From IMG/VR virus record IMGVR_UViG_3300018080_000111: DNA of 64,000 nucleotides; one strand, given 5' to 3'. The translations under genes and the position numbers were made by a program. The DNA is from a virus. Its lineage: Duplodnaviria > Heunggongvirae > Uroviricota > Caudoviricetes. Positions 1-46,578 of the stretch are shown here, piece after piece. Each line of letters starts with the position of its first letter. The first letter of the stretch is position 1. Under the pieces are notes generated by a model. The model was not told where the DNA came from, did no database searches, and saw nothing but the letters and a program-made list of their open reading frames with translations.

Positions 1-226
1 TTTTTGCTTTCCTAACTCTGTTTAAGGTTATGGATAGACCTTCCGCAATAAACCCAACAGTAGCATGTGCTTGATTTGTTTTTTGCCAATCGGAGGTGTA
101 AAGAATAAACATATACACGGATAATATGTCCGAAATATTTTTTACTTTATAGTCCCGCAAAGAAAGAATTTTATCAAAAGTACTCTTATGTGTGGCAATT
201 AGATTCTGGGTAGGACTACTCATTAT
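1..226 (-). CDS. hypothetical protein, partial (runs off the window start)
   Basis: Reverse-strand ATG at 226-224 and an open frame to position 1 (at least 75 codons, no stop). Not in the ORF track because it is truncated. Confidence 0.35.
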   Translation of the reverse strand, partial: MMSSPTQNLIATHKSTFDKILSLRDYKVKNISDILSVYMFILYTSDWQKTNQAHATVGFIAEGLSITLNRVRKAK

Positions 227-280
227 CTTCTACTCCTGGAAAAGTTAAAAAGCGAAAACATTATATCATCGCATTTCAAA

Positions 281-326
281 TTATTAGTCTATAAGCATTT
301 ATATTATTAGTCTATAAGCATTTATA
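281..326. repeat. 2 x 23-bp perfect tandem repeat (ttattagtctataagcatttata) in an intergenic region
   Basis: Read directly from the sequence. AT-rich, between two leftward genes. Confidence 0.8.
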
Positions 327-664
327 TGTTATTTCTTTGCCATCTTATTTTCCTACCATCAAAAATATGGCAGATCAAAACAGTCCAACACCTACACGGT
401 CTTTATCTTTTTAATCTCTTCAATATCCTCTTCAGAGAGGTCAAACCACTCTCCTTGTACTCTTTTGTCCTTAAATTCCTCATGAAAGGAGCTTTCTAAC
501 AAAGTACAATATTGACTTTTATCGAAGGAAGAAGTATTGGTGTGGGTTCTGGATAATTACAACCATTTAATTTTTTTACTCTAACTTCGGGATCTTGGGA
601 AGTTTCCCCGATTTTTACATACTTTCCTTTTTAGCAAAGTAGACATATCCTTTTTTCCTTTTAG

Positions 665-943
665 TTATGGATATTTTTGGGGTTTTGTTTCTTGGTTGTG
701 AATATCAATTTCTTTTTGAATTTTTAGAGTTATCTTATCGTTGTGTTCTTGAATTTCATCCGATCCGAAGCTTTTTAGTTCCTGTAAAGACTCTATAAGT
801 AAATTAATTTCTTCTGGAGTTGGCCAATACCCATAGCAATTGCCTACCGATACTCGCCCATCCTCGTATAGTGTAAATGAATATGATTCATTTACCCCTC
901 TGAAAGATTCAGCTATTTGCCCTCTGGATTTAATTCTATCCAT
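665..943 (-). CDS. hypothetical protein (92 aa)
   Basis: ORF in the leftward block. Its start overlaps the stop of the upstream leftward ORF (943), suggesting operon-like coupling. Confidence 0.5.
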   Translation of the reverse strand: MDRIKSRGQIAESFRGVNESYSFTLYEDGRVSVGNCYGYWPTPEEINLLIESLQELKSFGSDEIQEHNDKITLKIQKEIDIHNQETKPQKYP

Positions 944-1398
944 TACTCATCTCCCCCTTCCTCAAGGACTTTCTCAATATACTCCTGAACCCATTGGAGG
1001 CCTACGGCCCCTGCTTTTAGGTTTCGAAGGATTATTTTAAGGTGTTCTGTTTCGGCATCCATTCTAAGTCTCCTCTTCTGGAATTTCTTCAAAATTATTT
1101 GTGTGTAGTCCCCAGATAATTCTTCCGTCTCTGGTTGCGATTGTACAGTGGCCTTCCATATTTGGAATTTCTCCCAGGAATATGAATGGGCCTCTTTCCA
1201 CTCTCCAGTGATTGAGTTCAGGAGGAAAGCATCCCATATCTCCACAGTATCGAACAAGGGAGTATTGTCTTGGGGTTTTGAGGTTAGATAGATGTGTTTT
1301 ATAATACATTTTAATTCTGCTTCTTCTCTTGTGTCGAATGGACCAAATTTGCACGTCCATGTTTCATCCCAGAAGAACCATTCTTGGTTATTGAGCAT
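943..1398 (-). CDS. hypothetical protein (151 aa)
   Basis: Longest ORF in this interval. It overlaps and is preferred to the 1064..1360 alternative frame. Confidence 0.5.
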   Translation of the reverse strand: MLNNQEWFFWDETWTCKFGPFDTREEAELKCIIKHIYLTSKPQDNTPLFDTVEIWDAFLLNSITGEWKEAHSYSWEKFQIWKATVQSQPETEELSGDYTQIILKKFQKRRLRMDAETEHLKIILRNLKAGAVGLQWVQEYIEKVLEEGGDE

Positions 1399-1564
1399 TG
1401 TCGAATTGGGTCTGGATTATACGTCATATCTATTTTCCTAGTATATTGATTTTATCTAACATCTTTCGGGTAAATTCTCTCTTTAAAAAGCCGACTCGGT
1501 ATCTTTCGCCCTCTCAACCGATAGTTTACGTGAAAGTGTTGGACATCGGCTGCTCTACACCGCA

Positions 1565-1636
1565 CTAACCCCCCAGGACTCGAACCTGAATTGTGGGATC
1601 AAAACCTCCTGTGCTATCCATTACACTAAGGGGTTA
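1565..1636 (-). tRNA. tRNA-like gene (candidate anticodon UUG, Gln), non-canonical
   Basis: Reverse strand reads TAACCCC..TCAGG-TTCGAGT-CCTGG-GGGGTTA-G. The 7-bp acceptor stem is perfect and the T-arm carries the canonical GGTTCGAGTCC T-loop. The putative anticodon stem GGAGG/CCCAC has two internal mismatches. No encoded CCA. A TATAAT box lies about 12 nt upstream on the reverse strand. Confidence 0.5.
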
Positions 1637-1651
1637 TAATATTATACTGTT

Positions 1652-1903
1652 TTAGTCTCGTACTTCTCTTGCTTCTTCCTCTGCCGGATCATATTCAAGA
1701 ACCTGTCCAGTTCTATACGTCCCTGCAGGCAGTACAATTGTTTTATGCTCTTGATGGGTTACTTCACTTCCTTGTGGAGCATTTAATTGTAAACTATTAT
1801 CTCCGAATACTTCTTCAAAAACCACAACCTCTTTTCCTGCTGCTGCGTGATAGTGTCCTGTAACTTCTCCTTCTGCCAAATGATTGTTTTCTTTCTTCTT
1901 CAT
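1652..1903 (-). CDS. hypothetical protein (83 aa)
   Basis: ORF immediately downstream (on the leftward strand) of the tRNA. Confidence 0.45.
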   Translation of the reverse strand: MKKKENNHLAEGEVTGHYHAAAGKEVVVFEEVFGDNSLQLNAPQGSEVTHQEHKTIVLPAGTYRTGQVLEYDPAEEEAREVRD

Positions 1904-1918
1904 TTTTTACCCTTTCAA

Positions 1919-3457
1919 TTAAGTTAAAATAGTTGGAAGCGGTTTTATTGAACATTTTTCTTTTGGCGCTATTACAACATCTCCTTGTTGAAACCAATCT
2001 TTCCCGTTTGTATCAATTGGATATTCTTTAAACCAATTTGGTTTTCTAAAGTGTAATGCTTTTTCAACCGTACTACACTCGGGGGGTAATCCTTCAAGAT
2101 GATAGATCAGATTATTTTTGGTGGAAAGGGATGGATTAACCATTTTAAGTAAGGTCCACCCCTTTCCAATATTAAGATAAACTACTTCATAAAGATGTTT
2201 GAATATTTCTTTTCCATTGGAGATTAATAATTCCTTTTTATCCAGAACTTTCCCACCTAATTTATGGTGTAGTCTTTCATATCCTATCTTTCGGACAAAT
2301 TCCCTACGTTGTTCAGCATTTTTTAATTCATTTATTTTTCCTGGATCTATTTTGGTGTCTCTCGTTTCTGCCAACCATTGGGGAACTCTTACCCCGTTTA
2401 AGGACCAAATAGACCAACCGTTCTGATATGTGATTGCAGGACGACCTTCTTTATGCAGCCCATTTTCTCCCAAATGTATTTCTTTTGGTTTTTGGCAAAG
2501 AACACAGAAGTTTTCAAAAGGGTAGATTAAGGATAATTTAGTTGTGTCCCTCCAGGTTTCCCATAGTTTCTTTGGAAAAGAAATACCCAAAATTATATTA
2601 AAGTAGTCATAGAAGGATAAAATTGGGCTGGAAAATTGACCATCCAAATAAGGCCAAGTAAAGTTAGGTACTTGACTCCATACTTGACCCCCTACTTGAC
2701 TCTCTACTTGATCCCTTACTTGACTCCATACTTGATTCCATACTTGACTCCTTACTTGATCCACTACTTGACTCCATACTTGATTCCTTACTTGACTCTC
2801 TACTTGACTCTCTACTTGATTCCTTACTTGACTCCATACTTGACTCCATACTTGACTCCTTACTTGATTCCTTACTTGATTCCTTACTTGACTCTCTACT
2901 TGACCCCCTACTTGATCCACTACTTGATTCCTTACTTGATTCCTTACTTGATTCCTTACTTGACTCCCTACTTGACTCCCTACTTGACTCCCTACTTGAT
3001 TCCATACTTGACTCCCTACTTGACCCCTTACTTGACTCTCTACTTGACTCCATACTTGACTCCATACTTGACTCCATACTTGACCCCCTACTTGATTCCT
3101 TACTTGATTCCATACTTGACTCTCTACTTGATTCCTTACTTGACTCCCTACTTGATTCCTTACTTGACCCCTTACTTGACTCTCTACTTGACTGTCTACT
3201 TGACTCCATACTTGATTCCTTACTTGATCTCCTAGAGAATACAAATAGATTATCCCATACCAAGTTGTGATAGGACAATTAAAGATAAATATTGGAACTC
3301 TTTTCTTTTTTAGAATATTGTCGTATAAACTATAAATAATAGGGGTTGCTTCACTTAGGGTGAAGGGAGCAGTATTCAACCCTATTTTAATCCATTTGTC
3401 CCGAATAATAGGAATTTCTTTTTCTTTTTGTTCTGTTGTTAGTTTTTTAATCATCAA
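1919..3457 (-). CDS. repeat protein with about 47 tandem tetrapeptide [W/R/G/E][S/N]QV units between unique N- and C-terminal domains
   Basis: 512-aa ORF spanning the whole 12-bp repeat array in frame with unique flanks. A 170-aa C-terminal domain is non-repetitive and protein-like. Confidence 0.6.
2669..3233. repeat. 12-bp tandem repeat array, about 47 units (consensus TACTTGA[C/T][T/C]C[C/T]N), inside the CDS
   Basis: Direct reading. The period of 12 equals 4 codons. Most units contain GANTC (GACTC or GATTC). Confidence 0.9.
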
Positions 3458-3638
3458 ATATCCACCTATCTATATTATACTTTTAACCAGGGTTTGATTT
3501 GGGATTTTCCGAACCTCCTCCATTCTCTCGGTAACGTTTGACTAATATACACGTTTCATCCTTACAGTTTTCCGGACCAACACAGTAAGAATACTTTCTT
3601 TTTGGTCCATCACACAGATAAACTTTCATTTTAAGCTC

Positions 3639-3980
3639 CTACTTCAATCTCTTTCGATTCAAAGATCTAAGTTTATTGTAAAACTTGATGGGTTCTTGAA
3701 AAGAATCATATTCTGTATATCTACAATCAAACTCTGGATCAACCAGAGCACCTGGACAATTAGAACACATCGATCCATTCTCCTCTTGATCATATTTACA
3801 AAAGAAACATCCACAACATATATCTGATTCGACATATCCTTCCTTATTAAACCAGATCGACTTTAATTCATTAATATCCCTACTATTCCCTTTTCTCACT
3901 TGATCTGAGATCCATCTCCACATCCTTAGACATTCCTTCCATACATCATCTAACTTAGTTGGCACTTCTATATATTTCAT
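3639..3980 (-). CDS. Cys-rich putative zinc-binding protein (113 aa)
   Basis: Motif CCGCFFC...CSNC...C. Start abuts the stop of the HNH gene. Confidence 0.5.
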   Translation of the reverse strand: MKYIEVPTKLDDVWKECLRMWRWISDQVRKGNSRDINELKSIWFNKEGYVESDICCGCFFCKYDQEENGSMCSNCPGALVDPEFDCRYTEYDSFQEPIKFYNKLRSLNRKRLK

Positions 3981-3981
3981 T

Positions 3982-4491
3982 TTAAGCTCCTACTAGAACC
4001 AGTTCATTGCATGATTGTCTTTTTCTTTTCTTCCTCTTTTTGTAATGGTTTATCTCTTCTTTGGTTTTATTTCCTTTTTTCTGATTACAGGGTTGGCACA
4101 TAACTTGGTAATTGTCTTGATGATTTGGCCCCCTTTTTGATTTGGGAATAATATGATCTTTTGTCATTAAGGTGATTTCTTCCCCATCAATATGGTAGAG
4201 ATTAAGATGGAAAAGAGGTTTCCCATTTTCGGTTTCTCTTTGATCGACACTTAGTACATTTCCGATTTTTCCACAAGAGACACAAATAAGGCTTCTCTCA
4301 AATAGTCGATATCTCTGAGAGGTGATTTTAATTGGAACCAATCCTTTTTCCGATCCAATGAAGATCCTCCTCTTATTCCTATTGTTCTTAGCTGTCCGAA
4401 TATTCCAGAGAAAATGTTTTGGAACAAATCTTAGGATAGAGGTCAGTCCATTTTTCATTTGTATGTTACCAGTTTCATTAATTGGACTCAT
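3982..4491 (-). CDS. HNH endonuclease
   Basis: The C-terminus HIDGEE...DHIIPKSKRGPNHQDNYQVMCQPCNQKKG matches the HNH His-Asn-His/Cys pattern. Confidence 0.75.
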   Translation of the reverse strand: MSPINETGNIQMKNGLTSILRFVPKHFLWNIRTAKNNRNKRRIFIGSEKGLVPIKITSQRYRLFERSLICVSCGKIGNVLSVDQRETENGKPLFHLNLYHIDGEEITLMTKDHIIPKSKRGPNHQDNYQVMCQPCNQKKGNKTKEEINHYKKRKKRKRQSCNELVLVGA

Positions 4492-4817
4492 TTACGTTTC
4501 CTCTAAAACAGGTGAAGCAAAGGGGTTCGTCCTCATACCAGACAGTTTTTCCTGGCTCTAATTCCGTTTGACAGTTGGAACAATTCTCTCCCATAGAATG
4601 TAGTTTCTTTTCAACTTCTTCCAAGGTGGAGCACTTAAACCCCACTAAATTTTTGGAAGATAGATTGGAAAGTAAGAATCCCTCTTCTTGGATTTCAAGA
4701 ACTACAAGTCCTTTTTCACTTGCTCTTTTTCTCAGATTGAATAGTTTCGTAATCTCCCTTTCGCATTAAACCCTATATTTAAAATATAGCCCACTTTTCC
4801 GGGAAGGCCAAATAAAA

Positions 4818-4891
4818 TCTCCCAGGTCAGATTTGAATTGACAACTTCTCGGCCCCAAACCGAGCACTCTGCCAAGTTAAGCTACTGGGAG
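4818..4891 (-). tRNA. tRNA-Pro(UGG)-like
   Basis: Reverse strand reads CTCCCAG-TA-GCTT-AACTTGGCA-GAGT-G-CTCGG-TTTGGGG-CCGAG-AAGTT-GTCAA-TTCAAAT-CTGAC-CTGGGAG-A. The 7-bp acceptor and 5-bp anticodon stems are perfect, the loop is UU-UGG-GG, and the D-loop has A14/G18G19/A21. The T-stem has one A53/C61 mismatch. No encoded CCA. Confidence 0.6.
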
Positions 4892-5118
4892 AAAGAAGAG
4901 AAAAGCATTGAACTCCTAAAATCCAATAGGATCAAATCTCCTTCAGCATTTTCTCTTTTGCTCATATTTCCAATATTTCCCTAATTTTCTTCCATTTCTC
5001 TCCCATTTGTGATATCCGAAGACAGCCTATTAAATCTGTTATCTGGTTTTGTCCTAACATTCCAGGGTCCGACCCATGATACACTTGGCGATGGATAAAT
5101 TGACCATTTTTTCATCTC

Positions 5119-6006
5119 CTACATATCATCTGGGTGACGAAATCCATCAAATACTGGGAATCGGGGAGCCTCTTTCACCCCATAAGGTTGATACCTATAA
5201 CGTGCTATTTGTCCCAGGTACTTATCCGGATTCTCCCAAATTTCCTTTCTCTTCTCATCATCAAAGCCGGTTCCGATGGAGAATTCAATCCCCGTCTTGA
5301 GATCTCGAACCCTCAGATTCCCCAAAGTCCCCGCCGGAACCATTCCGTCTTTGTGGTGACTCCTTTCGGTATGTCCAAAGACATCCTCCTTAGCCTCGTT
5401 TTGGTTATGCATCTTCTCTTCGAACCCAAGTACTACTGCCTCTCCATGTTCAAAACGTTTGATTTTCAACAAATATCCTTCTTTCTCCGTGGATCGTCCA
5501 TTTTTATAGGGTCCTTTGGGGTCTCGGATTATTACTCCCTCATATCCTTCCTCAAGGCACTTCTCTTCAAAGGCATCCAAGACCTCTTGGTTATAGATCC
5601 AGACAGGAAGTACTTTTTTCAGGTGGGGGATACTGTTATTTAGAAGGTCCAGATTGTTCATTCTATCTCCATATGGGACTTCCGTCTTTCCCTGGACCAC
5701 ATAATCAAATACCCAATATTCAAAGTTCTCGGCGTCCTCTGGCTTCCCGGACTTACTTCTCATAATAGTTCCGGTAGCTTCCCCGAAGGCTTTTCCCGGG
5801 ATCATAAGTTCTCCATCACATCCATCCGGAAAGTTCTTTACAACCTCCTCTCGGATATATGGATTAGGAATAGGTTTGAACTTTCTGGAAACCGCCCGCC
5901 CATTGATAACCAGACAACGTACCCCATCCAGTTTAGGGGTCGCAAGGACTGGAAAATTAATAGGCCTATTCGTGTATCTTCCTGCAAGCATTGGTTTCGT
6001 AATCAT
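5119..6006 (-). CDS. ATP-dependent DNA ligase (compact, 295 aa)
   Basis: Motif I KLDGVR (TPKLDGVRC), motif III-like CDGELMI, motif IV-like EGYEGVIIRD, motif V-like LLKIKRFE. The size resembles minimal viral ligases. Confidence 0.75.
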   Translation of the reverse strand: MITKPMLAGRYTNRPINFPVLATPKLDGVRCLVINGRAVSRKFKPIPNPYIREEVVKNFPDGCDGELMIPGKAFGEATGTIMRSKSGKPEDAENFEYWVFDYVVQGKTEVPYGDRMNNLDLLNNSIPHLKKVLPVWIYNQEVLDAFEEKCLEEGYEGVIIRDPKGPYKNGRSTEKEGYLLKIKRFEHGEAVVLGFEEKMHNQNEAKEDVFGHTERSHHKDGMVPAGTLGNLRVRDLKTGIEFSIGTGFDDEKRKEIWENPDKYLGQIARYRYQPYGVKEAPRFPVFDGFRHPDDM

Positions 6007-6015
6007 TTTGTTTTC

Positions 6016-6690
6016 CTAAAGATCAGTCTTTTTGATTTTCTTTAATAATTTTCCTTCGTACCCAAAGAGATACCAGTCATCCCCATTGAATACAGGGATA
6101 ACTCCTCTTTCCCAAAGATCAATTCCAGATTGGTAGGGGTTTTTTCCTTCTGGATGCTTAATGTATTTCCATTTCTTTAGGTTGAAGAAAGAGGAAATAT
6201 AGGCCCCTACAGAATCCACTACAGAATCCCATACAGAAATCCAGGTTTTTAGAAGTTCAAGATCCTTTTTGGAAATTCTGGTTCTCTTTCTGTCTTTAAG
6301 CGGATGAACAATGGGCTTTAAAATTAGTTCCGGAGGAGCCAATTTGGAAAAGTCCAATTGGCAAATCTTCCGAAGAACCTGTTTTTGGTCATCCTCACAA
6401 TTAATTTGATCAACAATAAACCTTCTATCCAAAGGACGATATTCATATTTGTTGACCTTATCATCGTCAAGTCCAAAAAAAGCAGAGATTGAACTATGGG
6501 AATCCGGATAGAAGGTATTTCTGGACTTATCTACTAAAGTTCCTTCTTTGATTTCTTTTCTTTGTTCCCCATTGAAAAAGTAAACTTTTCCTTTTCCATT
6601 GGACACGCATGAAAACCAATTACACATAATTATTCTCCTAATTAATAAAGTCCCCGCACTTTTCCACTCTCCTCCGATAGTCCTCCACAA
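6016..6690 (-). CDS. hypothetical protein (224 aa)
   Basis: ORF in the leftward block. Confidence 0.5.
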   Translation of the reverse strand: MWRTIGGEWKSAGTLLIRRIIMCNWFSCVSNGKGKVYFFNGEQRKEIKEGTLVDKSRNTFYPDSHSSISAFFGLDDDKVNKYEYRPLDRRFIVDQINCEDDQKQVLRKICQLDFSKLAPPELILKPIVHPLKDRKRTRISKKDLELLKTWISVWDSVVDSVGAYISSFFNLKKWKYIKHPEGKNPYQSGIDLWERGVIPVFNGDDWYLFGYEGKLLKKIKKTDL

Positions 6691-6705
6691 AATGTCGTAG
6701 TATAT

Positions 6706-7299
6706 TCAGTCATTTTCAGTTTCCCTCTTCAAATTTGAAAAAGAGTCTCGGCGAATCAAGCCGATGGATTGTTTGTCGCCCCGAAGAGCCAGCGCAACTC
6801 GCTTGCGGCTCAACGGTTTTTTGAACCACGTGGGCGACAAGGATCGCCGTGGGTCTAATAGCTCCGCCGCGCACAACCGTTCGACCGCCTCCTCGATAGT
6901 TGACGGCTTTTCTGCGTCAAATCTCGCTTTTTCTAATAAGAGGTCATAAGCGTACTTTGCGGCCTGCTCGGCGGTTTGAAACCAGTTCTTTCCAAGGAGT
7001 TGTTCACGAACAAACCCTTTACGGCTCATGATGTGATTGGCGTGACCCTCGGATTTACACCCGATTCGTTTGCCTTCGACCGAATAAGCACTGCCTAATG
7101 TTGAGCCAGGAATGACTATATACCACATTAATTCCGGCTCGACCTCCAACTCATCTTCCACAGCTCTTCGCGTAAATATCTCACCCTCCATAATCCTCGC
7201 AGATCTCTTACATATCTCGGCAAACCCTTCGCCCACGTTTTTGGTTCGCCTTACAAACCCAGCGTAAATTGTTATCTTTGCTATTTTCCACCTCAACAA
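6706..7299 (-). CDS. hypothetical protein (197 aa) encoded on a GC-rich island
   Basis: Long ORF. Local GC is visibly higher than the flanks (runs such as gccccgaagagccagcgcaactcgcttgcggctc). Confidence 0.5.
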   Translation of the reverse strand: MLRWKIAKITIYAGFVRRTKNVGEGFAEICKRSARIMEGEIFTRRAVEDELEVEPELMWYIVIPGSTLGSAYSVEGKRIGCKSEGHANHIMSRKGFVREQLLGKNWFQTAEQAAKYAYDLLLEKARFDAEKPSTIEEAVERLCAAELLDPRRSLSPTWFKKPLSRKRVALALRGDKQSIGLIRRDSFSNLKRETEND

Positions 7300-7314
7300 T
7301 TCAAAAATGAACTT

Positions 7315-7557
7315 TTAATTCCAAAACCACCAATCTCGTATCGGTGCCCCATTATTATCACATTTGTGCCAGCCTTCGGATACTTTCTTCTTCCAGTACT
7401 TCTTGGCATCGTCCTTAGTAAGGACTTTATCAATGTAGGAGGTTGCTCCTAAACATCCGTGGATTCCAATAGAGCCAGCGTTCATGGAATAGAACTTGAT
7501 AAAAAGGATGGAAATATTATACCTTAAAGTCCCCATATGCTTTTGTGCCCCTATCAT
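7315..7557 (-). CDS. hypothetical protein (80 aa)
   Basis: First gene of the leftward block. The conserved promoter-like motif is about 30 nt upstream. Confidence 0.4.
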   Translation of the reverse strand: MIGAQKHMGTLRYNISILFIKFYSMNAGSIGIHGCLGATSYIDKVLTKDDAKKYWKKKVSEGWHKCDNNGAPIRDWWFWN

Positions 7558-7582
7558 CCTAAATCCCCCAAAAAGTTTCCCC

Positions 7583-7608
7583 CTTACATTTAAATTATAA
7601 CCTATTTT
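7583..7608 (-). promoter_or_regulatory. conserved 26-bp divergent-promoter motif (plus strand cttacatttaaattataacctatttt; TATAAT on the minus strand), copy 1
   Basis: Identical 26-mer recurs at 31615..31640. Both copies sit in AT-rich divergent intergenic regions, 13-38 nt upstream of a leftward gene's start. Confidence 0.45.
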
Positions 7609-7840
7609 AAAGGAAAAACAAACAAAAAATCCAGAATTTTTAAAATTTTTAGGTATCCAATAATACCCTAATTATTGAACTAAAAACAATTGGTTTCCTA
7701 ATACCATTCCTAAGGCCAAATTATTATACTAAAAAATCCATATTATTTATGCCATTTACTCAATATAATTAATGATATGTAGCAAGGAAGATCACTTTTA
7801 TAGTAAACCCCTTTTTTAATTCAAAAATAAAGGTTTTATA

Positions 7841-9634
7841 GTGGAGATATATAATCCATTTACCCTCCTTAGGGACTTAACCAAAAAGTCCCCAACCATT
7901 TCAGCAGACGTCCTGGATCAAGGAAAGCTCACCCAGAAGGAAAAGGAACTCATCCGAAGGGTGGGAATTACTTTCAGCCAATTGCAAAGGGATATCCAGG
8001 CTGATGTAAGTGTTACGTGGGACCGTCAACGTTACACTGCACAACTAAACCGATCACTTGACCATGCACTTATGGCAGCAGCAGTGAGACTTTACGCGAC
8101 GTCTTCCTGCACAATGTCGCCGATTCATAACGCGTCCGTCTGGGTAACGAGTGAAAGTTCAAAGTACCAAAAGATACTATCGAACTTCCTGGATGATATA
8201 GGTATAGAAGAAAAGATCTATGACTGGGCTTGGACAGTTGCGGCCTTTGGTGATTTGTTTGTAGAGGTAAAAGGACTTCCTAATCTAGGAGTAGTATCCA
8301 TTCAGGATGATAGGAATCCCATTGAAATTAGTAGGGTAGAGCATGATGGTATTTTAGTAGGATTTTATGATACTCCCTTAGGCCAGAGCTCAAATACAAG
8401 TGAACAGGCCTTAATTGAGCCCTGGAAGTATGTACATTTCCGCCTTTTGGGAGCCAAGCGAACCAGACCCCAGTTTGGGGATCCCTCCTACACAGAGTTC
8501 AAAACGATGTCCTTAATGTTAGGGCATGATACTAGACAGGCCTCAACCAGATATGGCACTTCCCTCATATTAGATGCACTTCCTACGTATAGAAGATTGA
8601 GGATGGCAGAGGATAGTTTACTTCTGGCCAGGATGACAAGAGGAATACTTAGGTACATTTATACACTGAAGGTTGATGCAAATAATGCGGAAATGCTTGA
8701 TTCCCTTATTGATCAAATAGCAAATACACTAAAAAGGGCCAGGACGATTAATACATCCGATAGTGACCCTAATTTTTCGTCAAAGGAAAATCCATTCGGA
8801 GTAACAGAAGATCTTTTCCTACCTCTTCCAGATACTAATGATTTGGCCATAGATGAGATAGGTGGGAATCCGGATATCCGTTGGATTGTGGATGTGGAAG
8901 AACTTAAGCAACAATTGGCTTGTGCTCTAAGTACACCACTTTCCTTACTGGGCGGATATGTGGATGAGGCCACCGGGTCCTTAGGATCTGAGGCCATTGA
9001 ACAATTGGACATTGGTTTCGCAAGAAACTCTCGTAGATTACAAAGAGCCCTTATTATGGGGATTAAGAGACTGTGTCAAATTCATCTGGCCTACCAGAAC
9101 TTAGATCCAGATCCAGCACTGTTTGAAGTGAACATGTCTAGTCCAAGTACGGCAGAGGAAAAGCAACTTCAAGAAAATCTGGCCGAAGGAACGGAAACCA
9201 TTGAACGATTTATGGATATGTTGGAAAAAGTGGACTCTGATTTGGACCAAGAAAAGATATTCAATTATCTAAATCAGAAGATCTTAAAGTTAGAGGACTT
9301 CGATCTATCTCAGTTCAAGAAGGGGGCTCAGACCATAATTGTGGGCGAAAGTAAGGAGAATGAGTATAAGAGGTATCCTATTTACAATACGGATTTAATG
9401 TCCTTCTTGCCTTTGACTACTAGGAAGTTACTTAAGGAAGGGAGAGATATTGGTCCATATCTGAGAGAAAGATCAACCCTACTTTTCCAGAACAGATGGG
9501 AGAAGGATTGGAAGGATCGATATGGAAGTGCAGTAATAAAGGAACATAAAAGAGATGAGAAGCCCTCTCGTCAAATGACACTTGAGGATGAACAGAGGAG
9601 AACGGAAGTATCCGAGATGGGGGATCCCAGGTAA
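7841..9634 (+). CDS. portal protein (T4 gp20-like)
   Basis: 597 aa. The segment DEIGGNPDIRWIVDVEELKQQLACALSTPLSLLGG parallels the T4 gp20 motif ...[25 protein letters not shown]. First gene of the rightward structural block. Confidence 0.7.
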   Translation: MEIYNPFTLLRDLTKKSPTISADVLDQGKLTQKEKELIRRVGITFSQLQRDIQADVSVTWDRQRYTAQLNRSLDHALMAAAVRLYATSSCTMSPIHNASVWVTSESSKYQKILSNFLDDIGIEEKIYDWAWTVAAFGDLFVEVKGLPNLGVVSIQDDRNPIEISRVEHDGILVGFYDTPLGQSSNTSEQALIEPWKYVHFRLLGAKRTRPQFGDPSYTEFKTMSLMLGHDTRQASTRYGTSLILDALPTYRRLRMAEDSLLLARMTRGILRYIYTLKVDANNAEMLDSLIDQIANTLKRARTINTSDSDPNFSSKENPFGVTEDLFLPLPDTNDLAIDEIGGNPDIRWIVDVEELKQQLACALSTPLSLLGGYVDEATGSLGSEAIEQLDIGFARNSRRLQRALIMGIKRLCQIHLAYQNLDPDPALFEVNMSSPSTAEEKQLQENLAEGTETIERFMDMLEKVDSDLDQEKIFNYLNQKILKLEDFDLSQFKKGAQTIIVGESKENEYKRYPIYNTDLMSFLPLTTRKLLKEGRDIGPYLRERSTLLFQNRWEKDWKDRYGSAVIKEHKRDEKPSRQMTLEDEQRRTEVSEMGDPR

Positions 9635-22770: not shown

Positions 22771-25700
22771 ATGAATATTATTGAAAATCTGAAGAATAAA
22801 CCAATAATTGAAGAGAAGGATCAGGGAAACCTTCCGGATGCTGTCCTTTGCCGGGTTACTTACAATATATGTAATCTGGGAGAAAGGAATGCAAACAATC
22901 GCATCTATGAGAGAGGGGTCTTTGATAAAGTCCTTGCCGATGAAACTCTTCAGGAAATGATTCAGAATCGAAGACTATTTGGTCAGGCGGAACATCCTAC
23001 GGAGACTCAATCTGATCTTCAACTTACTTCTCATGTTATCCATAAGATGTGGATGGATGAGAATAATGTTTGGCAGACCATGGACGTTCTGGATACTCCT
23101 ATGGGTAGAATTGTGGATAGTTTAATCCGGGCTGAGTGTGGTGTTGGTGTTAGCACTCGGGCAGAGGGAGACCTGGAAGAGTCTGAGGATGACACCGGAA
23201 AGTTCAGTAGGGTGATTCCGGAATCATATGTTTACCGCACGACTGATTTTACTGCGGACCCGAGCACGTTCGGAGTTTTACCTGCCTCTATTAAAAGGAA
23301 TGTACTACCTACGGTTCAGGCCGAGATGGAGAACAAGAGTGCTACATCGGCAGAGAGGGACTTTGCTAAGCAGTTGTTTGAGTCTATTTCTAAGACAGAG
23401 GAATCCAAGGAATCTAAAACCACCGTCGAATCCCTTCTTAAAGAAGATAAGATCAAAGAAGGAACAGAACTCCTTTATGGTGATCAGGAGGTCAAGATAA
23501 TTAAGATTGATGAAGGAAGAGTTCTGGTTGGACTCCCAGGAAAAGAAGGAGACATTGCTATCGAAGGTGCAGAGGTTGCTACTATAGAAGTAGACTCTGG
23601 AAAAGTTCATGTCTGGCCGAAGGAGGAGATGGATATAGATGTTCCTGAGGCAGAACCGGTTGGAGATTTTGAGCCTGAGATGGAGGAGAAAAAGGAGACT
23701 AAGGAGACGGTCAGCCATAAAGGAAGAATTGTCATAACTAAGGATGATTTGAAGTTTGCTGATTCTGAAGATCTTCAAAGATTCCGTAAGATGATGGAAT
23801 TGGATAGAGCGGATCTTGAGGATGGTTTAACTTTAGAGGATCTGGAAGAGAAATGTAGTAAGTCCCACCCCAAGAAGAAAAAGATGAAGGAAGGAATGGA
23901 TCAACTCGTGGCTCGTAAGGAAGAACTCCTGGCCAAAAAAGAAGCTGGAAAATGTACTGAGGATGAGCGAAAGGAGTTGGTAGATATTGAGTCCAAGTTG
24001 AAAGATATGGATGTTGATATTGAGGAAAAATCTCTTCCTACTGAAGGAGGAGTCAGCTCTAAGGTTGCACAAGGAAACGTTCTGAAGAAAGGTGAGGAAA
24101 CTTGGATTGTGAAAAATTCAGACGCTTCTGGAGTTACTGTAACACAACCAGGTGAACCCGCTTCTGAGAAACATATTTCATGGGAATCCTTAGATGATGA
24201 GGACTTCGTAAAGATTGGTGAGAAGGTTGAAATTACAGAAGGATTTGATGTAGGAGACATCGTTCAGATAAAGGATAAAGAAGGAAATACTACAGTTGTT
24301 CCTGAGGCTACCGTTGCTAAAAAAGAGGAACAACAGGAAGGAGTAATGGCGGTAGAAGTTACTGGATCGGATAATGAGGATGAAATGCAATGGTACTCTG
24401 AAGATGAATATCAGATTATTCCTTTGAATAGGAAGAAATGGGAATCTAAGGTAGATGAATCTATTGATGAGGGATTCAAAACTGATCTGAGGAATAAGGA
24501 CAAGGCGGCCATCAAGAAAAGAATTTCAAATATTACTGACAAGATTCTTGCTGGTGAAAAAGTATCTTCTTCTGATAAGAGGTATTGGGAGGACTTCCAC
24601 ACGGCTGTGGAGAAGGTGAAAGGGGATGAGCCTAAAAATGAATCTGTTAATGAAGCAAAGGATGGATTCCTTTGGAGTGACCCAATTTCTGGTGCAAAAT
24701 ATGAGTTGACCAAAGATGACGACGGTTATATCATTTATGCTGATGAACAAGAAATTCTTACAACTAAAGGTGGGGGAGTTAAAATTATTGATGAATTCCA
24801 GGTTGGGGATGGGTTTATTAATATTCTATCAGAAACTGGATCTCACCAATATAGTGAATCTAAAGAAAGTAAATTAATTAAAGAACAATCGGATGAGGGC
24901 ACTGTTTATAGATTTAGTTCTTCTTCCGGATATGATTACGTGGCCAGCTTTAAGGAAGATGGGAGTTTTACTATTGAGGATGAGGAAAATGTATTAGCTC
25001 AAGGAACTTGGTCTGGCGCTGGGGTTACCAAAGTTGGCATAAATGATCCAATAAAGATTATTAATTTCCTACAAGAGCTCCTGTTCGATGGGGGTTATGA
25101 GGAAAGACCGATAGAATCCAAAGACATTAAAATCCAAGAGGCCATCTCCAGAGCAGAAAAGGAAAAGGCCTTAGAAACCATTGAGGAACTTTCCAATGAG
25201 TTGGATTCACAAAAGAACGAAAGTTCGGATTCTAAATTGAGGCTCAAGATGCTTATGAAGAAGATGAAGGAATCCCTCCAGGTTTATGATGAGGTATCCG
25301 CTCTTCGGACTAAGTTGGAGGAAAAGGCCAAAGAGGCCCACAGTCTGAGAGAATCCTTGGAGGAATCTAAATCTAAGTTAGATGAGGAGAAAAAGAAAGG
25401 GAAAGAGCAAATCTTAACCATTTCAGAAACACATAAGAATAAAGTAAATGCTATTGTTGAAAGTAACCAAAATCGTATTAAGATAGTAAAGGAGGAATAT
25501 GAGGAAATAGTTGAAGAGTCTAAAGCGCTAGGTATCACTGAAGGAAAATCAAAGGTCCTCAGTGAATACATAGATCGTAGACTTGCTGAGATTGGTCTGA
25601 GTATTGGGGAAAATACTCGAGCACTTCTCGATGGATGCGAATCCATTGGTGACGTGGAGGATATCCTGGAAAAAACTAAGGATATCCAACGCCGGAATGC

Positions 25701-25812
25701 ACTTCATTCTGAAGGAATCAAGGAAGTTCGCATAAGGAACCATCGTCAGATTGATCCTGAACAGGCAAGGGTGAAAGATGATGTGGATAATGCACTCGAC
25801 GGTATGATGTAA
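22771..25812 (+). CDS. prohead protease (T4 gp21-like N-terminal domain) fused to a long acidic coiled-coil scaffold-like region
   Basis: N-terminal NANNRIYERGVFD...LFGQAEHPTE resembles the gp21-family N..R.Y and G..E.DHP motifs. The remaining 800 aa or so are E/K/D-rich. It lies between the portal and the capsid gene, as in T4. Confidence 0.6.
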   Translation: MNIIENLKNKPIIEEKDQGNLPDAVLCRVTYNICNLGERNANNRIYERGVFDKVLADETLQEMIQNRRLFGQAEHPTETQSDLQLTSHVIHKMWMDENNVWQTMDVLDTPMGRIVDSLIRAECGVGVSTRAEGDLEESEDDTGKFSRVIPESYVYRTTDFTADPSTFGVLPASIKRNVLPTVQAEMENKSATSAERDFAKQLFESISKTEESKESKTTVESLLKEDKIKEGTELLYGDQEVKIIKIDEGRVLVGLPGKEGDIAIEGAEVATIEVDSGKVHVWPKEEMDIDVPEAEPVGDFEPEMEEKKETKETVSHKGRIVITKDDLKFADSEDLQRFRKMMELDRADLEDGLTLEDLEEKCSKSHPKKKKMKEGMDQLVARKEELLAKKEAGKCTEDERKELVDIESKLKDMDVDIEEKSLPTEGGVSSKVAQGNVLKKGEETWIVKNSDASGVTVTQPGEPASEKHISWESLDDEDFVKIGEKVEITEGFDVGDIVQIKDKEGNTTVVPEATVAKKEEQQEGVMAVEVTGSDNEDEMQWYSEDEYQIIPLNRKKWESKVDESIDEGFKTDLRNKDKAAIKKRISNITDKILAGEKVSSSDKRYWEDFHTAVEKVKGDEPKNESVNEAKDGFLWSDPISGAKYELTKDDDGYIIYADEQEILTTKGGGVKIIDEFQVGDGFINILSETGSHQYSESKESKLIKEQSDEGTVYRFSSSSGYDYVASFKEDGSFTIEDEENVLAQGTWSGAGVTKVGINDPIKIINFLQELLFDGGYEERPIESKDIKIQEAISRAEKEKALETIEELSNELDSQKNESSDSKLRLKMLMKKMKESLQVYDEVSALRTKLEEKAKEAHSLRESLEESKSKLDEEKKKGKEQILTISETHKNKVNAIVESNQNRIKIVKEEYEEIVEESKALGITEGKSKVLSEYIDRRLAEIGLSIGENTRALLDGCESIGDVEDILEKTKDIQRRNALHSEGIKEVRIRNHRQIDPEQARVKDDVDNALDGMM

Positions 25813-29100: not shown

Positions 29101-29913
29101 ATGTTCAACGAACTATACGAAAACATTCCTACTGAAATCAGTAAATCTGAATTCGAAGAACTTTTTCAGCCCATTTCTCAAGAAGAAGTAGAATCCAGAT
29201 TAATGGACTACATCAAGTCCGTCTGTACTGAAAATCCAGATGGCACTTGGAGTGCCAGTGGAGATGTGGATTTATCCAAAAGGGGTCTAACTAAGTTACC
29301 CATCAAATTCAAGGAAGTAGGTGGAGGCTTTTATTGTTCTCATAATAATCTAACTTCTCTAGAAGGAGCACCTCAGACAGTAGGTGGAGGCTTTTATTGT
29401 TACAACAACTCTCTAACTTCTCTAGAAGGAGCACCTCAGGAAGTAGGTGGAAACTTTGATTGCTCCTTCAACTCTCTAACCTCTCTAGAAGGAGCCCCTC
29501 AGACAGTAGGTAGTTTCTTTGATTGTTATAACAACTCTCTAACTTCTCTAGAAGGAGCCCCTCAGACAGTAGGCGGAGGCTTTTTGTGTTCTGACAACAA
29601 ATTAACTTCTCTAGAAGGAGCACCTCAGACAGTAGGTGGAAACTTTTTGTGTTCTGACAACAAATTAACTTCTCTAGAAGGAGCACCTCAGACAGTAGGT
29701 GGTTTCTTTGATTGCTCCTACAACTTACTAACTTCTCTAGAAGGAGCACCTCAGACAGTAGGTGGTTTCTTTGAGTGTTCCTTCAACTCTCTAACTTCTC
29801 TAGAAGGAGCGCCCCAGGAAGTAGGTGGATCCTTTCATTGTTCCAACAACAAACTTTCAGTTGAAGAATTAAAGAAAACAATAGATAGACCTTATTTGGA
29901 TAGAATAGGATAA
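29101..29913 (+). CDS. leucine-rich-repeat (20-aa LTSLEGAPQxVGGxFxCSxN units) protein, paralog 1
   Basis: About 9 tandem 60-bp repeats. The N-terminal 60 aa are near-identical to ORFs 43661 and 45334. Confidence 0.6.
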   Translation: MFNELYENIPTEISKSEFEELFQPISQEEVESRLMDYIKSVCTENPDGTWSASGDVDLSKRGLTKLPIKFKEVGGGFYCSHNNLTSLEGAPQTVGGGFYCYNNSLTSLEGAPQEVGGNFDCSFNSLTSLEGAPQTVGSFFDCYNNSLTSLEGAPQTVGGGFLCSDNKLTSLEGAPQTVGGNFLCSDNKLTSLEGAPQTVGGFFDCSYNLLTSLEGAPQTVGGFFECSFNSLTSLEGAPQEVGGSFHCSNNKLSVEELKKTIDRPYLDRIG

Positions 29914-31614: not shown

Positions 31615-31640
31615 TTACATTTAAATTATAACCTATTTTG
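31615..31640 (-). promoter_or_regulatory. conserved 26-bp divergent-promoter motif, copy 2
   Basis: Identical to 7583..7608. Confidence 0.45.
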
Positions 31641-31741
31641 GATAAAAGGCAAATAAAATACGGTGAAAAATCAATATAAATAAGGATAAAATAATACTTG
31701 TTTGTTGCCAATAATATCCTTGTTTTTGAAGGAAAAACTTA

Positions 31742-43661: not shown

Positions 43662-44164
43662 TGTTCAACGAACTATACGAAAACATTCTTACTGAGATCA
43701 GTAAATCTGAATTTGAGGACCTATTCCAGCCTATCTCTCAGGAGGAACTGGAATCCAGACTAATGGACTACATCAAGTCCGTCTGTACTGAAAATCCAGA
43801 TGGCACTTGGAGTGCCAGTGGAGATGTAGATGTAGATCTATATGGTAGAGGCCTAACTAAGTTACCCATCAAATTCAAGGAAGTAGGCGGACACTTTGAT
43901 TGTTCCAACAACTCTCTAACTTCTCTAGAAGGAGCACCTCAGAAAGTAGGTGGTTTCTTTATTTGTTCCCACAACTCCCTAACTTCTCTAGAAGGAGCCC
44001 CTCAGACAGTGGGTGGATCCTTTTATTGTTCCAACAACTCTCTAACTTCTCTAGAAGGAGCCCCTCAGACAGTAGGTGGTTTCTTTATTTGTTCCCGGAA
44101 CAAACTTTCAGTTGAAGAGCTAAAGAAAACAATTGATAGACCTTATTTGGATAGAATAGGATAG
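43661..44164 (+). CDS. leucine-rich-repeat protein, paralog 2
   Basis: Same N-terminal domain and 20-aa repeats as 29101. Confidence 0.6.
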   Translation: MFNELYENILTEISKSEFEDLFQPISQEELESRLMDYIKSVCTENPDGTWSASGDVDVDLYGRGLTKLPIKFKEVGGHFDCSNNSLTSLEGAPQKVGGFFICSHNSLTSLEGAPQTVGGSFYCSNNSLTSLEGAPQTVGGFFICSRNKLSVEELKKTIDRPYLDRIG

Positions 44165-45333: not shown

Positions 45334-46578
45334 ATGTTCAACGAACTATACGAAAACATTCTTACTGAAATCAGTAAATCTGAATTTGAAGACCTTTTCC
45401 AACCCGCTTCAGAGGAGGAACTGGAATCCAGATTAATGGACTACATCAAGTCCGTCTGTACTGAAAATCCAGATGGCACTTGGAGTGCCAGTGGAGATGT
45501 AGATCTATTTGAAAGAGGTCTAACTAAGTTACCCGTTCAGTTTAAGGAAGTAGGTGGTTTCTTTGAGTGTTCCTTCAACTCTCTAACTTCTCTAGAAGGA
45601 GCGCCCCAGGAAGTAGGTGGATCCTTTTATTGTTCCAACAACTTACTAACTTCTCTAGAAGGAGCACCCCAGAAAGTAGGTGGAACCTTTGATTGTTCCT
45701 TCAATTCTCTAACTTCTCTAGAAGGAGCCCCTCAGACAGTAGGTAGAAACTTCGATTGTTCCCACAACTCTCTAACTTCTCTAGAAGGAGCCCCTCAGAC
45801 AGTAGGTGGTTTCTTTATTTGTTCCCACAACTCCCTAACTTCTCTAGAAGGAGCCCCTCAGACAGTAGGTGGAACCTTTTGGTGTTCTGACAACAAAAAA
45901 CTTTCAGTTGAAGAGCTAAAGAAAACAATTGATAGACCTTATTTGGATAGAATAAAAGAATCCACCCTAAAAGAAGGAAAGAAGGAGGATCTCCATAAGC
46001 AATTTGTGGAAACAAATAAAGTTCCAGAAAAGGTATTTCACGATTTAGTTAAGTCTGATCGAACCGGAAAACAGAAGTATCTTTCTTGGATGTTGAAACA
46101 GTATGTTCTTAATCCAAGAAGACATACTCATATAAAAGACGTGGTCGAGTTATTTCATAAATTGGTCTCTAAAGGAAAAATCAGAGGATCTGATTCAGAT
46201 ATCTTTCTGTATGATTTAGAATCTTTAGATCAAAAGATTTCTGAAATTCCGGAAGAGAAAAGTAAAAGTGAAATCAAAAGAGAAAAAAAATCTGAATCGG
46301 AAAAAATTAAAGAAACAGATAGATACTTAATTGTTGTTCCCAAAAACCATGAAGCTTCCTGCTTCTACGGGTCAAATACTAAATGGTGTATCTCATCAAG
46401 AACCTCAGAGTATTGGGATAGGTATTGGAATATGGGATCCATTATCTACATCGTCATAGATAAGAAGGAAAACAAGAAGTATGCTGTGGCGACCTATCCG
46501 GATGGAACAAGGGAGGTTTATAATGAGAAGGACGAAACAATTCCCTTTAGTTCTTTGGTTAAAAAATTAGGAATGTAG
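45334..46578 (+). CDS. leucine-rich-repeat protein, paralog 3, fused to a C-terminal 200-aa domain
   Basis: Same N-terminus and repeats, with a C-terminal extension (..CFYGSNTKWCISSRTSEYWDRYWNMG..). Confidence 0.6.
   Translation: MFNELYENILTEISKSEFEDLFQPASEEELESRLMDYIKSVCTENPDGTWSASGDVDLFERGLTKLPVQFKEVGGFFECSFNSLTSLEGAPQEVGGSFYCSNNLLTSLEGAPQKVGGTFDCSFNSLTSLEGAPQTVGRNFDCSHNSLTSLEGAPQTVGGFFICSHNSLTSLEGAPQTVGGTFWCSDNKKLSVEELKKTIDRPYLDRIKESTLKEGKKEDLHKQFVETNKVPEKVFHDLVKSDRTGKQKYLSWMLKQYVLNPRRHTHIKDVVELFHKLVSKGKIRGSDSDIFLYDLESLDQKISEIPEEKSKSEIKREKKSESEKIKETDRYLIVVPKNHEASCFYGSNTKWCISSRTSEYWDRYWNMGSIIYIVIDKKENKKYAVATYPDGTREVYNEKDETIPFSSLVKKLGM

Follow-up and report, generated by a model that had tools for sequence, protein, structure and literature searches.

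An in-frame 12-bp tandem array in a DUF6745 protein of a myovirus, and its resemblance to the repeat gene of phage Tweety

Why would a phage gene carry several dozen copies of a 12-bp word in phase with its reading frame, and does the role of such an array lie in the protein, in the DNA, or in neither? The question is raised by a 64,000-nucleotide stretch of Caudoviricetes DNA (IMG/VR record IMGVR_UViG_3300018080_000111; "the window" hereafter designates this whole stretch), which belongs to a myovirus with a T4 gp20-like portal, a tail sheath and a prohead protease. A leftward open reading frame (ORF) of 512 amino acids (aa) contains the array. An initial annotation, made from the letters alone, had proposed selection at the protein level, a length-variable locus, and a possible importance of the GANTC sites that the units carry.

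Our main finding is that the array is an insertion at a single site of a two-domain protein of the DUF6745 family, that in relatives repeat number varies among near-identical phages, and that a small conserved gene is usually found beside the family gene. These features recall gp54 of mycobacteriophage Tweety, a gene described as retuned by repeat gain and loss. Our overall reading is that the array would form a repeat projection, inserted in a loop of an accessory protein that acts with a partner and is retuned by repeat number; our judgement of this reading as a whole is evenly divided.

The array and the family of its host protein

Tandem Repeats Finder (TRF) reports a period of 12, 46.9 copies and a score of 686 (coordinates of all elements of the locus are in Table 1), and codon-wise parsing resolves aa 76-263 into exactly 47 units with zero indels, in agreement with the estimate of about 47 phased units in the initial annotation. 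Q-V terminates 47/47 units. Twelve unit types are present, RNQV (11 copies), WSQV (9), ESQV (7) and GSQV (5) being the most frequent and the others rarer. Nucleotides 6-12 of the unit (T CAA GTA) are invariant, so that positions 6, 9 and 12 are all fixed, and nt 3 deviates in only 2 of the 47 units. Variation is found at nt 1 (G19/A16/T12), where G, A or T is used, and at nt 2, 4 and 5, where G or A is used, and every change alters an amino acid. Synonymous sites are frozen with respect to the background: CAA accounts for 47/47 codons (background 49%), GTA for 47/47 (29%), AGT for 24/24 (19%) and AGG for 16/16 (23%), and glutamate is encoded by GAG in 7/7 cases within the array versus GAA in 21/22 cases in the flanking domains of the same gene. 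The array units are therefore of recent common descent as DNA, and such differences as have lasted among them are those that change the protein. Unit positions 1 and 2 are linked in the window array, R pairing with N, and W, E and G with S, which suggests whole-unit copying. The signature of single-unit slippage was not significant there (9 adjacent identical units versus 5.6 expected, P = 0.086), and no higher-order period was found when one was looked for.

Two starts are available for the gene, TTG at 3457 (512 aa) and ATG at 3454 (511 aa), and the latter is likelier because it is better spaced (six bases) from a GGTGGA ribosome-binding site. Unique N- and C-terminal domains, which the initial annotation had anticipated, were found at aa 1-75 and aa 264-512. 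The second matches Pfam DUF6745 (PF20530; 48.2 bits against a cutoff of 27, E = 1e-12, aa 311-409), the repeat protein also matches phrog_31813, and the alignment consensus of the family spans both domains. The N-terminal domain is conserved in the family, including gp174 of the Microcystis phage Ma-LMM01 and gp38 of the M. abscessus prophage prophiGD102-1, both of which are homologous to the window protein over the N- and C-domains. Pfam, NCBIfam and PADLOC matches inside the array (COMPASS-Shg1, YpjP, Trigger_C, GvpQ, REase_II, PDC-S29/S32) were rejected as low-complexity artefacts.

Over 700 relatives were returned by a whole-protein search, with identities of 43-50% among the best. Each of the 120 top matches carries a run of x-x-Q-[V/I] units starting near residue 78, with 7-71 units per run (median 29), and their length follows the number of units (r = 0.91). 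Such a search is biased to repeat-bearing relatives by shared repeat words, whereas a search with the C-domain only is unbiased. The latter gave 3971 representatives of 50%-identity clusters at E <= 1e-3 (1316 at E <= 1e-10), and the family is spread over phages and contigs of metagenome-assembled genomes (MAGs) assigned to many bacterial and few archaeal lineages. Arrays of at least five units are present in about 40% of the best 150 C-domain relatives; retention of the repeat in related proteins, which the initial annotation had left to comparison, thus holds in both searches. In the array-less relatives P0226 and P0219 the two domains are joined by about 10 residues, and a long non-repetitive insert or linker takes the place of the array in P0244 and in Ma-LMM01 gp174, unlike in the window protein; the array of prophiGD102-1 gp38 lies at the same site as that of the window. 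It follows that the array has been inserted into a two-domain protein at a single, permissive loop. We found no description of the repeat of DUF6745 proteins in the searchable literature.

Could the array, or its unit count, be a product of assembly? An assembly of the same phage at k = 31 breaks at each array edge, and records exist for the neighbouring proteins but not for the exact 511-aa one. Yet the longest exact internal repeat of the array is merely 38 nt, so that any k-mer longer than 38 resolves it. Two Logan contigs (run SRR6963352) match window positions 1..2698 and 3198..8980 at 100%, and both end 30 nt inside the array edges, as expected for k = 31; this independent assembly therefore confirms both edges, the interior unit count (2699..3197) coming from a single assembly. 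Arrays are, moreover, common in relatives, both among whole-protein matches and among those found by the C-domain alone. An artefact is thus unlikely, its chance being very slight in our estimate. The only further copies of the window array retrieved were array-broken Logan contigs; no near DNA match to the window phage exists among deposited phages in the phage collection searched, and a 29-nt flank sequence was absent from the viral and Joint Genome Institute (JGI) metagenome contig collections.

There is also a practical caution: short-k assemblies break at such arrays, and the ORFs left open in other frames could mislead gene callers. Two further frames are open across the array, 2636..3235 (+), 199 aa, and 2664..3278 (-), 204 aa. 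The exact 511-aa product is missing from a large protein collection that holds its neighbours, and automated pipelines may call the gene wrongly or drop it where a contig breaks.

Repeat pattern and repeat number among relatives

Over the 120 top matches, unit position 1 is R (24%), W (20%), G (16%) or E (12%), position 2 is S (32%), N (27%) or D (20%), position 3 is Q in 92% of units, and position 4 is V in 88% and I in 9%. The codons behind this pattern differ: valine is GTA in the window, GTG in L001, L002 and L053, and GTT in L003, and the approximately 50 [W/R/G][G/D]QL units of prophiGD102-1 gp38 are encoded by CAG-CTC. More distant cores also exist, with [W/G/R][A/G/N/D]SV units in an element of Marinacidobacterales and x-D-A-A units in a Clostridia MAG. 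That x-x-Q-[V/I/L] is kept with differing codons supports both a coding frame and protein-level selection on the Q-V core.

Per-position variability is alike in 13/13 arrays examined: nt 1 reaches 1.4 bits and nt 5 1.1 bits, nt 2 and nt 4 are moderately variable, and nt 3 and nt 6-12 are near zero, so that variation is restricted to non-synonymous sites in every one of them. The first codon is NGG-like in all 13; single-base changes therefore switch between W (TGG), R (AGG/CGG) and G (GGG), and reach E via GAG. Taken together, these patterns argue that the repeat is both selected as protein and homogenised as DNA. The protein-level selection proposed in the initial annotation accordingly stands for the Q-V core, which relatives preserve with other codons, and fails as a sole explanation, synonymous sites being frozen too.

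Outside the family, clusters of tiny ORFs made nearly entirely of x-x-Q-V units, for example MKRFIDQVRSQVLNQVGNQVGNQVWNQV, were seen on two IMG/VR contigs (L004:5980-8400 and L006:5950-7500), where neighbouring mini-arrays are read in different frames. By these clusters, the x-x-Q-V repeat would also exist as stand-alone mini-proteins outside the DUF6745 family.

Length alleles were compared within protein clusters at 90% identity. In these clusters the flanking domains are identical (100% at the protein level) and lengths differ by multiples of 4 aa, which bears out, for relatives of the window gene, the suggestion that this is a length-variable type of locus. One set, on contigs of about 49 kb, comprises alleles of 598, 582, 550, 538, 494, 414, 410, 398 and 394 aa; others comprise 511/507/431/407/403 aa, 339/323 aa and 430/410 aa. 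Unit counts thus range from about 17 to 68 among otherwise identical phages. The 598-aa (L053) and 414-aa (L054) alleles have DNA flanks of 99.3-99.9% identity and contain exact internal repeats of at most 81 nt and 55 nt, respectively. According to its name, the L054 contig was assembled at k = 141 (the assembler of L053 is not known), far above its 55-nt repeat, and collapse is therefore unlikely there. Each of these two alleles recurs on 4-5 contigs. The length variants of the relatives are, by this comparison, probably real alleles.

Two known routes to variable phage or bacterial genes fit these data poorly. For a target of a diversity-generating retroelement, the window holds a single 12-bp array whose variation is not adenine-specific, no search having been made for a reverse transcriptase; for a phase-variable on/off frameshift, the unit is 12 nt and the length alleles of relatives all keep to multiples of 4 aa.

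Predicted structure, partner gene and possible function

AlphaFold2, run on the window protein with a 108-sequence alignment, gave a mean predicted local distance difference test (pLDDT) score of 79 and a predicted template modelling (pTM) score of 0.66, with pLDDT above 90 for the N-domain (aa 1-75) and the C-domain (aa 270-512). The model argues that the two domains form one docked globular body. Its whole-length Foldseek match to Ma-LMM01 gp174 has E = 9e-18, and no solved structure resembling either domain was found. The array is predicted to be all helix, with a confidence of about 85 at its ends, and in the 13-unit homologue P0009 (pTM 0.76) it is modelled as a helix at 79-95, a break, and a helix at 103-125. 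A beta-solenoid, considered at the outset, found no support in these low-confidence helical predictions. As array-less relatives join the domains by about 10 residues and the domains would form one body, the array ends should lie close together, and its 188 residues must then run out and back. A helical hairpin is accordingly a possible geometry, in which we place low confidence.

The partner gene starts 15 nt beyond the stop codon of the repeat gene. In 36 of 49 related loci a same-strand homologue directly adjoins the DUF6745 gene, on its upstream side in some and on its downstream side in others, and gp175 is the homologue beside gp174 in Ma-LMM01. The window ORF has no Pfam match and no PDB sequence match. 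Alignment reveals invariant residues (LAEGE-G-H...H-EH...D..D) that look like a putative metal-binding site. Full-length partners (about 100-125 aa) open with 'YQQGDVLL...LP..AK'; the partner lacks this QQGDV segment in the window and in L012, L020 and L021, and there the DUF6745 protein carries the insert instead. A motif search found QQGDV-type inserts in 20 of 120 DUF6745 homologues. Across the loci, P0203 and the small proteins of L013 included, the segment is on one protein or the other, never on both, a pattern that speaks well, if indirectly, for binding between the two proteins. A read-through fusion with the partner was ruled out by two in-frame stops between the genes; in L012, L020 and L021, moreover, the two genes are in different frames. 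The partner gene of the DUF6745 family has no description that we could find in the literature.

The remaining neighbours of the gene differ between phages. An ATP-dependent DNA ligase and an HNH endonuclease are close to it in the window, terminase and portal genes in L053, DNA polymerase and uracil-DNA glycosylase (UDG) in Ma-LMM01, and RepA lies upstream in prophiGD102-1, as expected for a mobile accessory cassette.

We propose the following mechanism. The repeat projection encoded by the array would emerge from a single permissive loop in a phage accessory protein of two domains, leaving the docked domains and returning to them, according to the model, as two helical arms. The invariant Q and V residues would build the stalk, and positions 1 and 2 (W/R/G/E and S/N) would decorate its surface. 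Identical 12-nt units may be gained or lost by replication slippage or unequal recombination; with units of 12 nt, the reading frame is always preserved on a change of copy number, and phage populations would thereby carry alleles differing only in stalk length and surface pattern. The repeat protein would act with the adjacent His-rich protein, probably binding it via the QQGDV segment. By analogy with Tweety, the module could serve in counter-defence or host interaction, with changes in repeat number retuning its specificity.

Tweety gp54 contains 48 units of 12 bp encoding A-A-[G/W/Q]-[S/Y], with invariant third positions and variable first and second positions (PMC2884959). Its relatives, which include Che8 gp57 and PMC gp51, have 26 and 15 units, and the gene is dispensable (PMC2884959; Pham et al. 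2007). According to two reviews that summarise Dedrick et al. 2017 (PMC9262239, PMC8549241), gp54 counters the (p)ppGpp-synthetase-like defence of Phrann gp29/gp30 and the defence of MichelleMyBell, and escape mutants gain or lose gp54 repeats, which 'tunes' specificity. Like gp54, the window protein has unique N- and C-terminal parts around a central 12-bp array (roughly 15-48 units in the Tweety group). When both arrays are parsed alike, each has two fixed and two variable residues per unit, an NGG-type variable first codon (G/W/Q in Tweety, W/R/G/E in the window), invariant third codon positions and variable first and second ones. In both cases copy number varies among close relatives, those being relatives of the window gene in its own family, and the gene is accessory. 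The two differ in their invariant core, A-A in gp54 and Q-V in the window, with the DUF6745 member of L020 having an x-D-A-A core that resembles that of Tweety, and in layout, gp54 having an N-terminal part of about 140 aa and only about 45 aa after its array. A tblastn search with prophiGD102-1 gp38 did not find Tweety, and no homologue of the small partner gene was found beside gp54. By sequence comparison, then, the window gene is gp54-like in architecture and evolutionary behaviour, a member of DUF6745, and outside the gp54 phamily. Function has been demonstrated for Tweety only, and since the flanks of the two are unrelated, function is transferred by analogy only.

Two other systems are less close. 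In Bordetella phage BMP-1, VR2 of bbp36 is an in-frame tandem repeat present in 9-20 copies according to the isolate, in a dispensable gene (PMC2884959); unlike in the window, its unit is 24 bp (a 19-bp repeat and a 5-bp spacer), and the likeness is one of description. Pentapeptide-repeat proteins of the Qnr/MfpA type are likewise made of short peptides repeated in tandem, in which a set position is hydrophobic, but the period here is 4, not 5, no Pfam pentapeptide match was obtained, and AlphaFold2 predicts helix rather than beta-helix.

Several observations weigh against the proposed projection and its retuning. The flanks are not homologous to those of gp54 (BLASTP E = 0.14; gp54 has no DUF6745 or other Pfam match). 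Copy-number variation was seen in relatives and not in the window phage itself. About 60% of close family members lack an array, which is therefore not needed for the core activity of the family. The term 'DUF6745' is absent from the searchable literature, which offers no functional evidence for any protein of this family. The pLDDT of the array falls below 50 over aa 123-220 and is 46-63 even in the 13-unit P0009; by our own reasoning, an exact period of 4.0 residues misfits canonical coiled-coil packing, and in addition units rich in G, S, N and V are poor helix formers.

Some of these points favour another explanation, in which the array is a tolerated by-product, that is, a slippage-prone 12-nt microsatellite in a permissive surface loop, its length and surface being near neutral and selection keeping only solubility and frame. 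Most relatives have no array, or unrelated inserts at the same site, copy number spans 7-71, the confidence of AlphaFold2 in the array is low, and the frozen synonymous sites indicate recent DNA-level amplification. It is harder to see, however, why near neutrality would make the same four-position pattern recur, with differing codons, in phages of very different G+C and host range (W/R/G/E at position 1, S/N/D at position 2, Q in 92% and V/I in 97% of units), or confine variation to non-synonymous sites in 13/13 arrays. In Tweety, repeat number also has a selectable phenotype. We regard a mere by-product as distinctly unlikely, if deserving of attention.

Could the function instead lie in the DNA, as a block of GANTC (CcrM/HinfI-type) sites or as iterons for replication or packaging, the ORF being secondary? 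The array does offer GANTC at 12-bp spacing in 37 of its 47 units (about 40 sites had initially been counted), and in one relative (L053) the gene is located between terminase and portal. But over the whole window GANTC is at chance frequency (338 observed versus 336 +/- 16 expected), related arrays that use AGC/AAC/GAC codons have lost it, the peptide and not the DNA word is conserved between genomes, and the position of the gene is not conserved. In the array the sites arise at G|AGT|C and G|AAT|C codon junctions. The 37 sites are an incidental by-product of codon choice; on the strength of the chance-level count and the loss in related arrays we reject the role in methylation to which the initial annotation had pointed, and to a DNA function in general we give almost no weight. 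In four units (GD, VD twice, RD), aspartate at position 2 creates GATC (Dam-type) sites, likewise from codon choice. A virion or assembly component whose repeat acts as a molecular ruler or fibre is also very improbable. It would suit the place of the gene between the terminase large subunit and the portal in the approximately 49-kb phage of L053, and weak PHROG matches to tape-measure and virion proteins inside the repeat; those matches, however, are low-complexity artefacts confined to the array, a range of about 17 to 68 units in otherwise identical phages is hard to reconcile with a ruler, and the gene stands among early or DNA-metabolism genes in the window, Ma-LMM01 and prophiGD102-1.

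Returning to the repeat projection, a counter-defence function tuned by repeat number is, by analogy with Tweety, the best-supported hypothesis for what it does, if a prospect somewhat short of even. It matters in that few phage counter-defence proteins have been reported to be retuned by repeat gain or loss, gp54 being one of them; here, the same repeat logic appears in an unrelated and far larger family (about 4000 clusters at 50% identity), with natural length alleles in otherwise identical phages. If the analogy holds, there would be many natural variants with which to relate repeat number to specificity, and a candidate new anti-defence module. If it fails, the family remains a clear example, within a phage gene, of an in-frame minisatellite that is hypervariable and evolves in concert. 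More speculatively, and in our opinion rather doubtfully, phages of many bacterial phyla may share, in x-x-Q-[V/I/L] arrays (or x-x-A-A and x-x-S-V), a general and portable 'tunable stalk' that combines an NGG first codon with slippage and that, in the DUF6745 family, would arm a hitherto unnoticed counter-defence module of two proteins (DUF6745 and phrog_27831). If this were true, Tweety gp54 would be one instance of a widespread, rapid retuning of phages against host immunity.

Other features of the locus and of the window

Table 1. Elements of the repeat-gene locus, in window coordinates
Feature	Position	Strand	Evidence
Tetrapeptide-repeat protein gene (stop codon 1919-1921)	1919..3457	-	ORF list and sequence; full-length homologues at 43-50% identity; Pfam DUF6745; phrog_31813
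N-terminal domain, aa 1-75, motif LTxxQ...DKWxxIGL...P...W	3233..3457	-	AlphaFold2 pLDDT 85-98; family conservation
Repeat array, 47 x 12 nt, [W/R/G/E/V/D][S/N/G/D]-Q-V	2669..3232	-	TRF; unit parsing; per-position counts; codon homogeneity; same variability profile in 13 arrays
C-terminal DUF6745 domain, aa 264-512	1922..2668	-	Pfam PF20530; pLDDT above 90; 3971 cluster representatives
C-terminal stretch, aa ~472-512, with 21-residue insert before the conserved PxILT end	1922..2044	-	Matches N-terminal segment of full-length partners
Partner gene, 83-aa His-rich protein (LAEGEvTGHyH ... HQEH ... D..D), phrog_27831	1652..1903	-	Adjacency in 36/49 loci; PHROG match; alignment

A tRNA-Gln(UUG) gene (1565..1636, -) follows 15 nt downstream of the partner gene; its product is cognate to CAA, the codon that occurs 47 times in the array. 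A role as supplier for CAA was considered and set aside: the adjacency is absent in 23 related loci, and is probably coincidental or lineage-specific. A tRNA-Pro(UGG) gene is found further upstream (4817..4892, -). On the same strand, an ORF of 224 aa (6016..6690) without Pfam match includes a three-unit 12-bp mini-array at 6207..6243, which reads WISV-WDSV-VDSV; it was rejected as a paralogue of the DUF6745 protein (hhalign probability 0.2%).

Copies of a phage-like element with both genes of the module were observed in the MAG CBDFHB01 (Candidatus Marinacidobacterales; L013-L019 and L033). At least eight copies, sharing up to about 9 kb, are spread over contigs of 5.9 Mb and 0.66 Mb; identity is 93-99% for most of them and closer to 88-92% for two. 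Besides the DUF6745 gene, here with an x-x-S-V array, and its partner, the element carries three DNA methyltransferase-like ORFs and a gene of the HNH type, and the scattering of its copies suggests a transposable or repeatedly integrating prophage.

Elsewhere in the window, three plus-strand genes have tandem repeats of 63 bp (21 aa; 29316..29850, 43900..44095 and 45549..45879) with the motif LTSLEGAPQxVGGxFxCxxN. They give weak matches to Pfam LRR_4 and look like a small family of leucine-rich repeat (LRR)-like proteins in the structural or late region. The prohead core protease (Peptidase_S77) domain covers only aa 40-141 of a 1013-aa ORF (22771..25812, +), which is unusually long for a prohead protease and is otherwise unannotated. 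Short tandem repeats of 22-23 bp, with 2.0-2.4 copies, are present at 271..327, 31640..31691 and 48070..48111.

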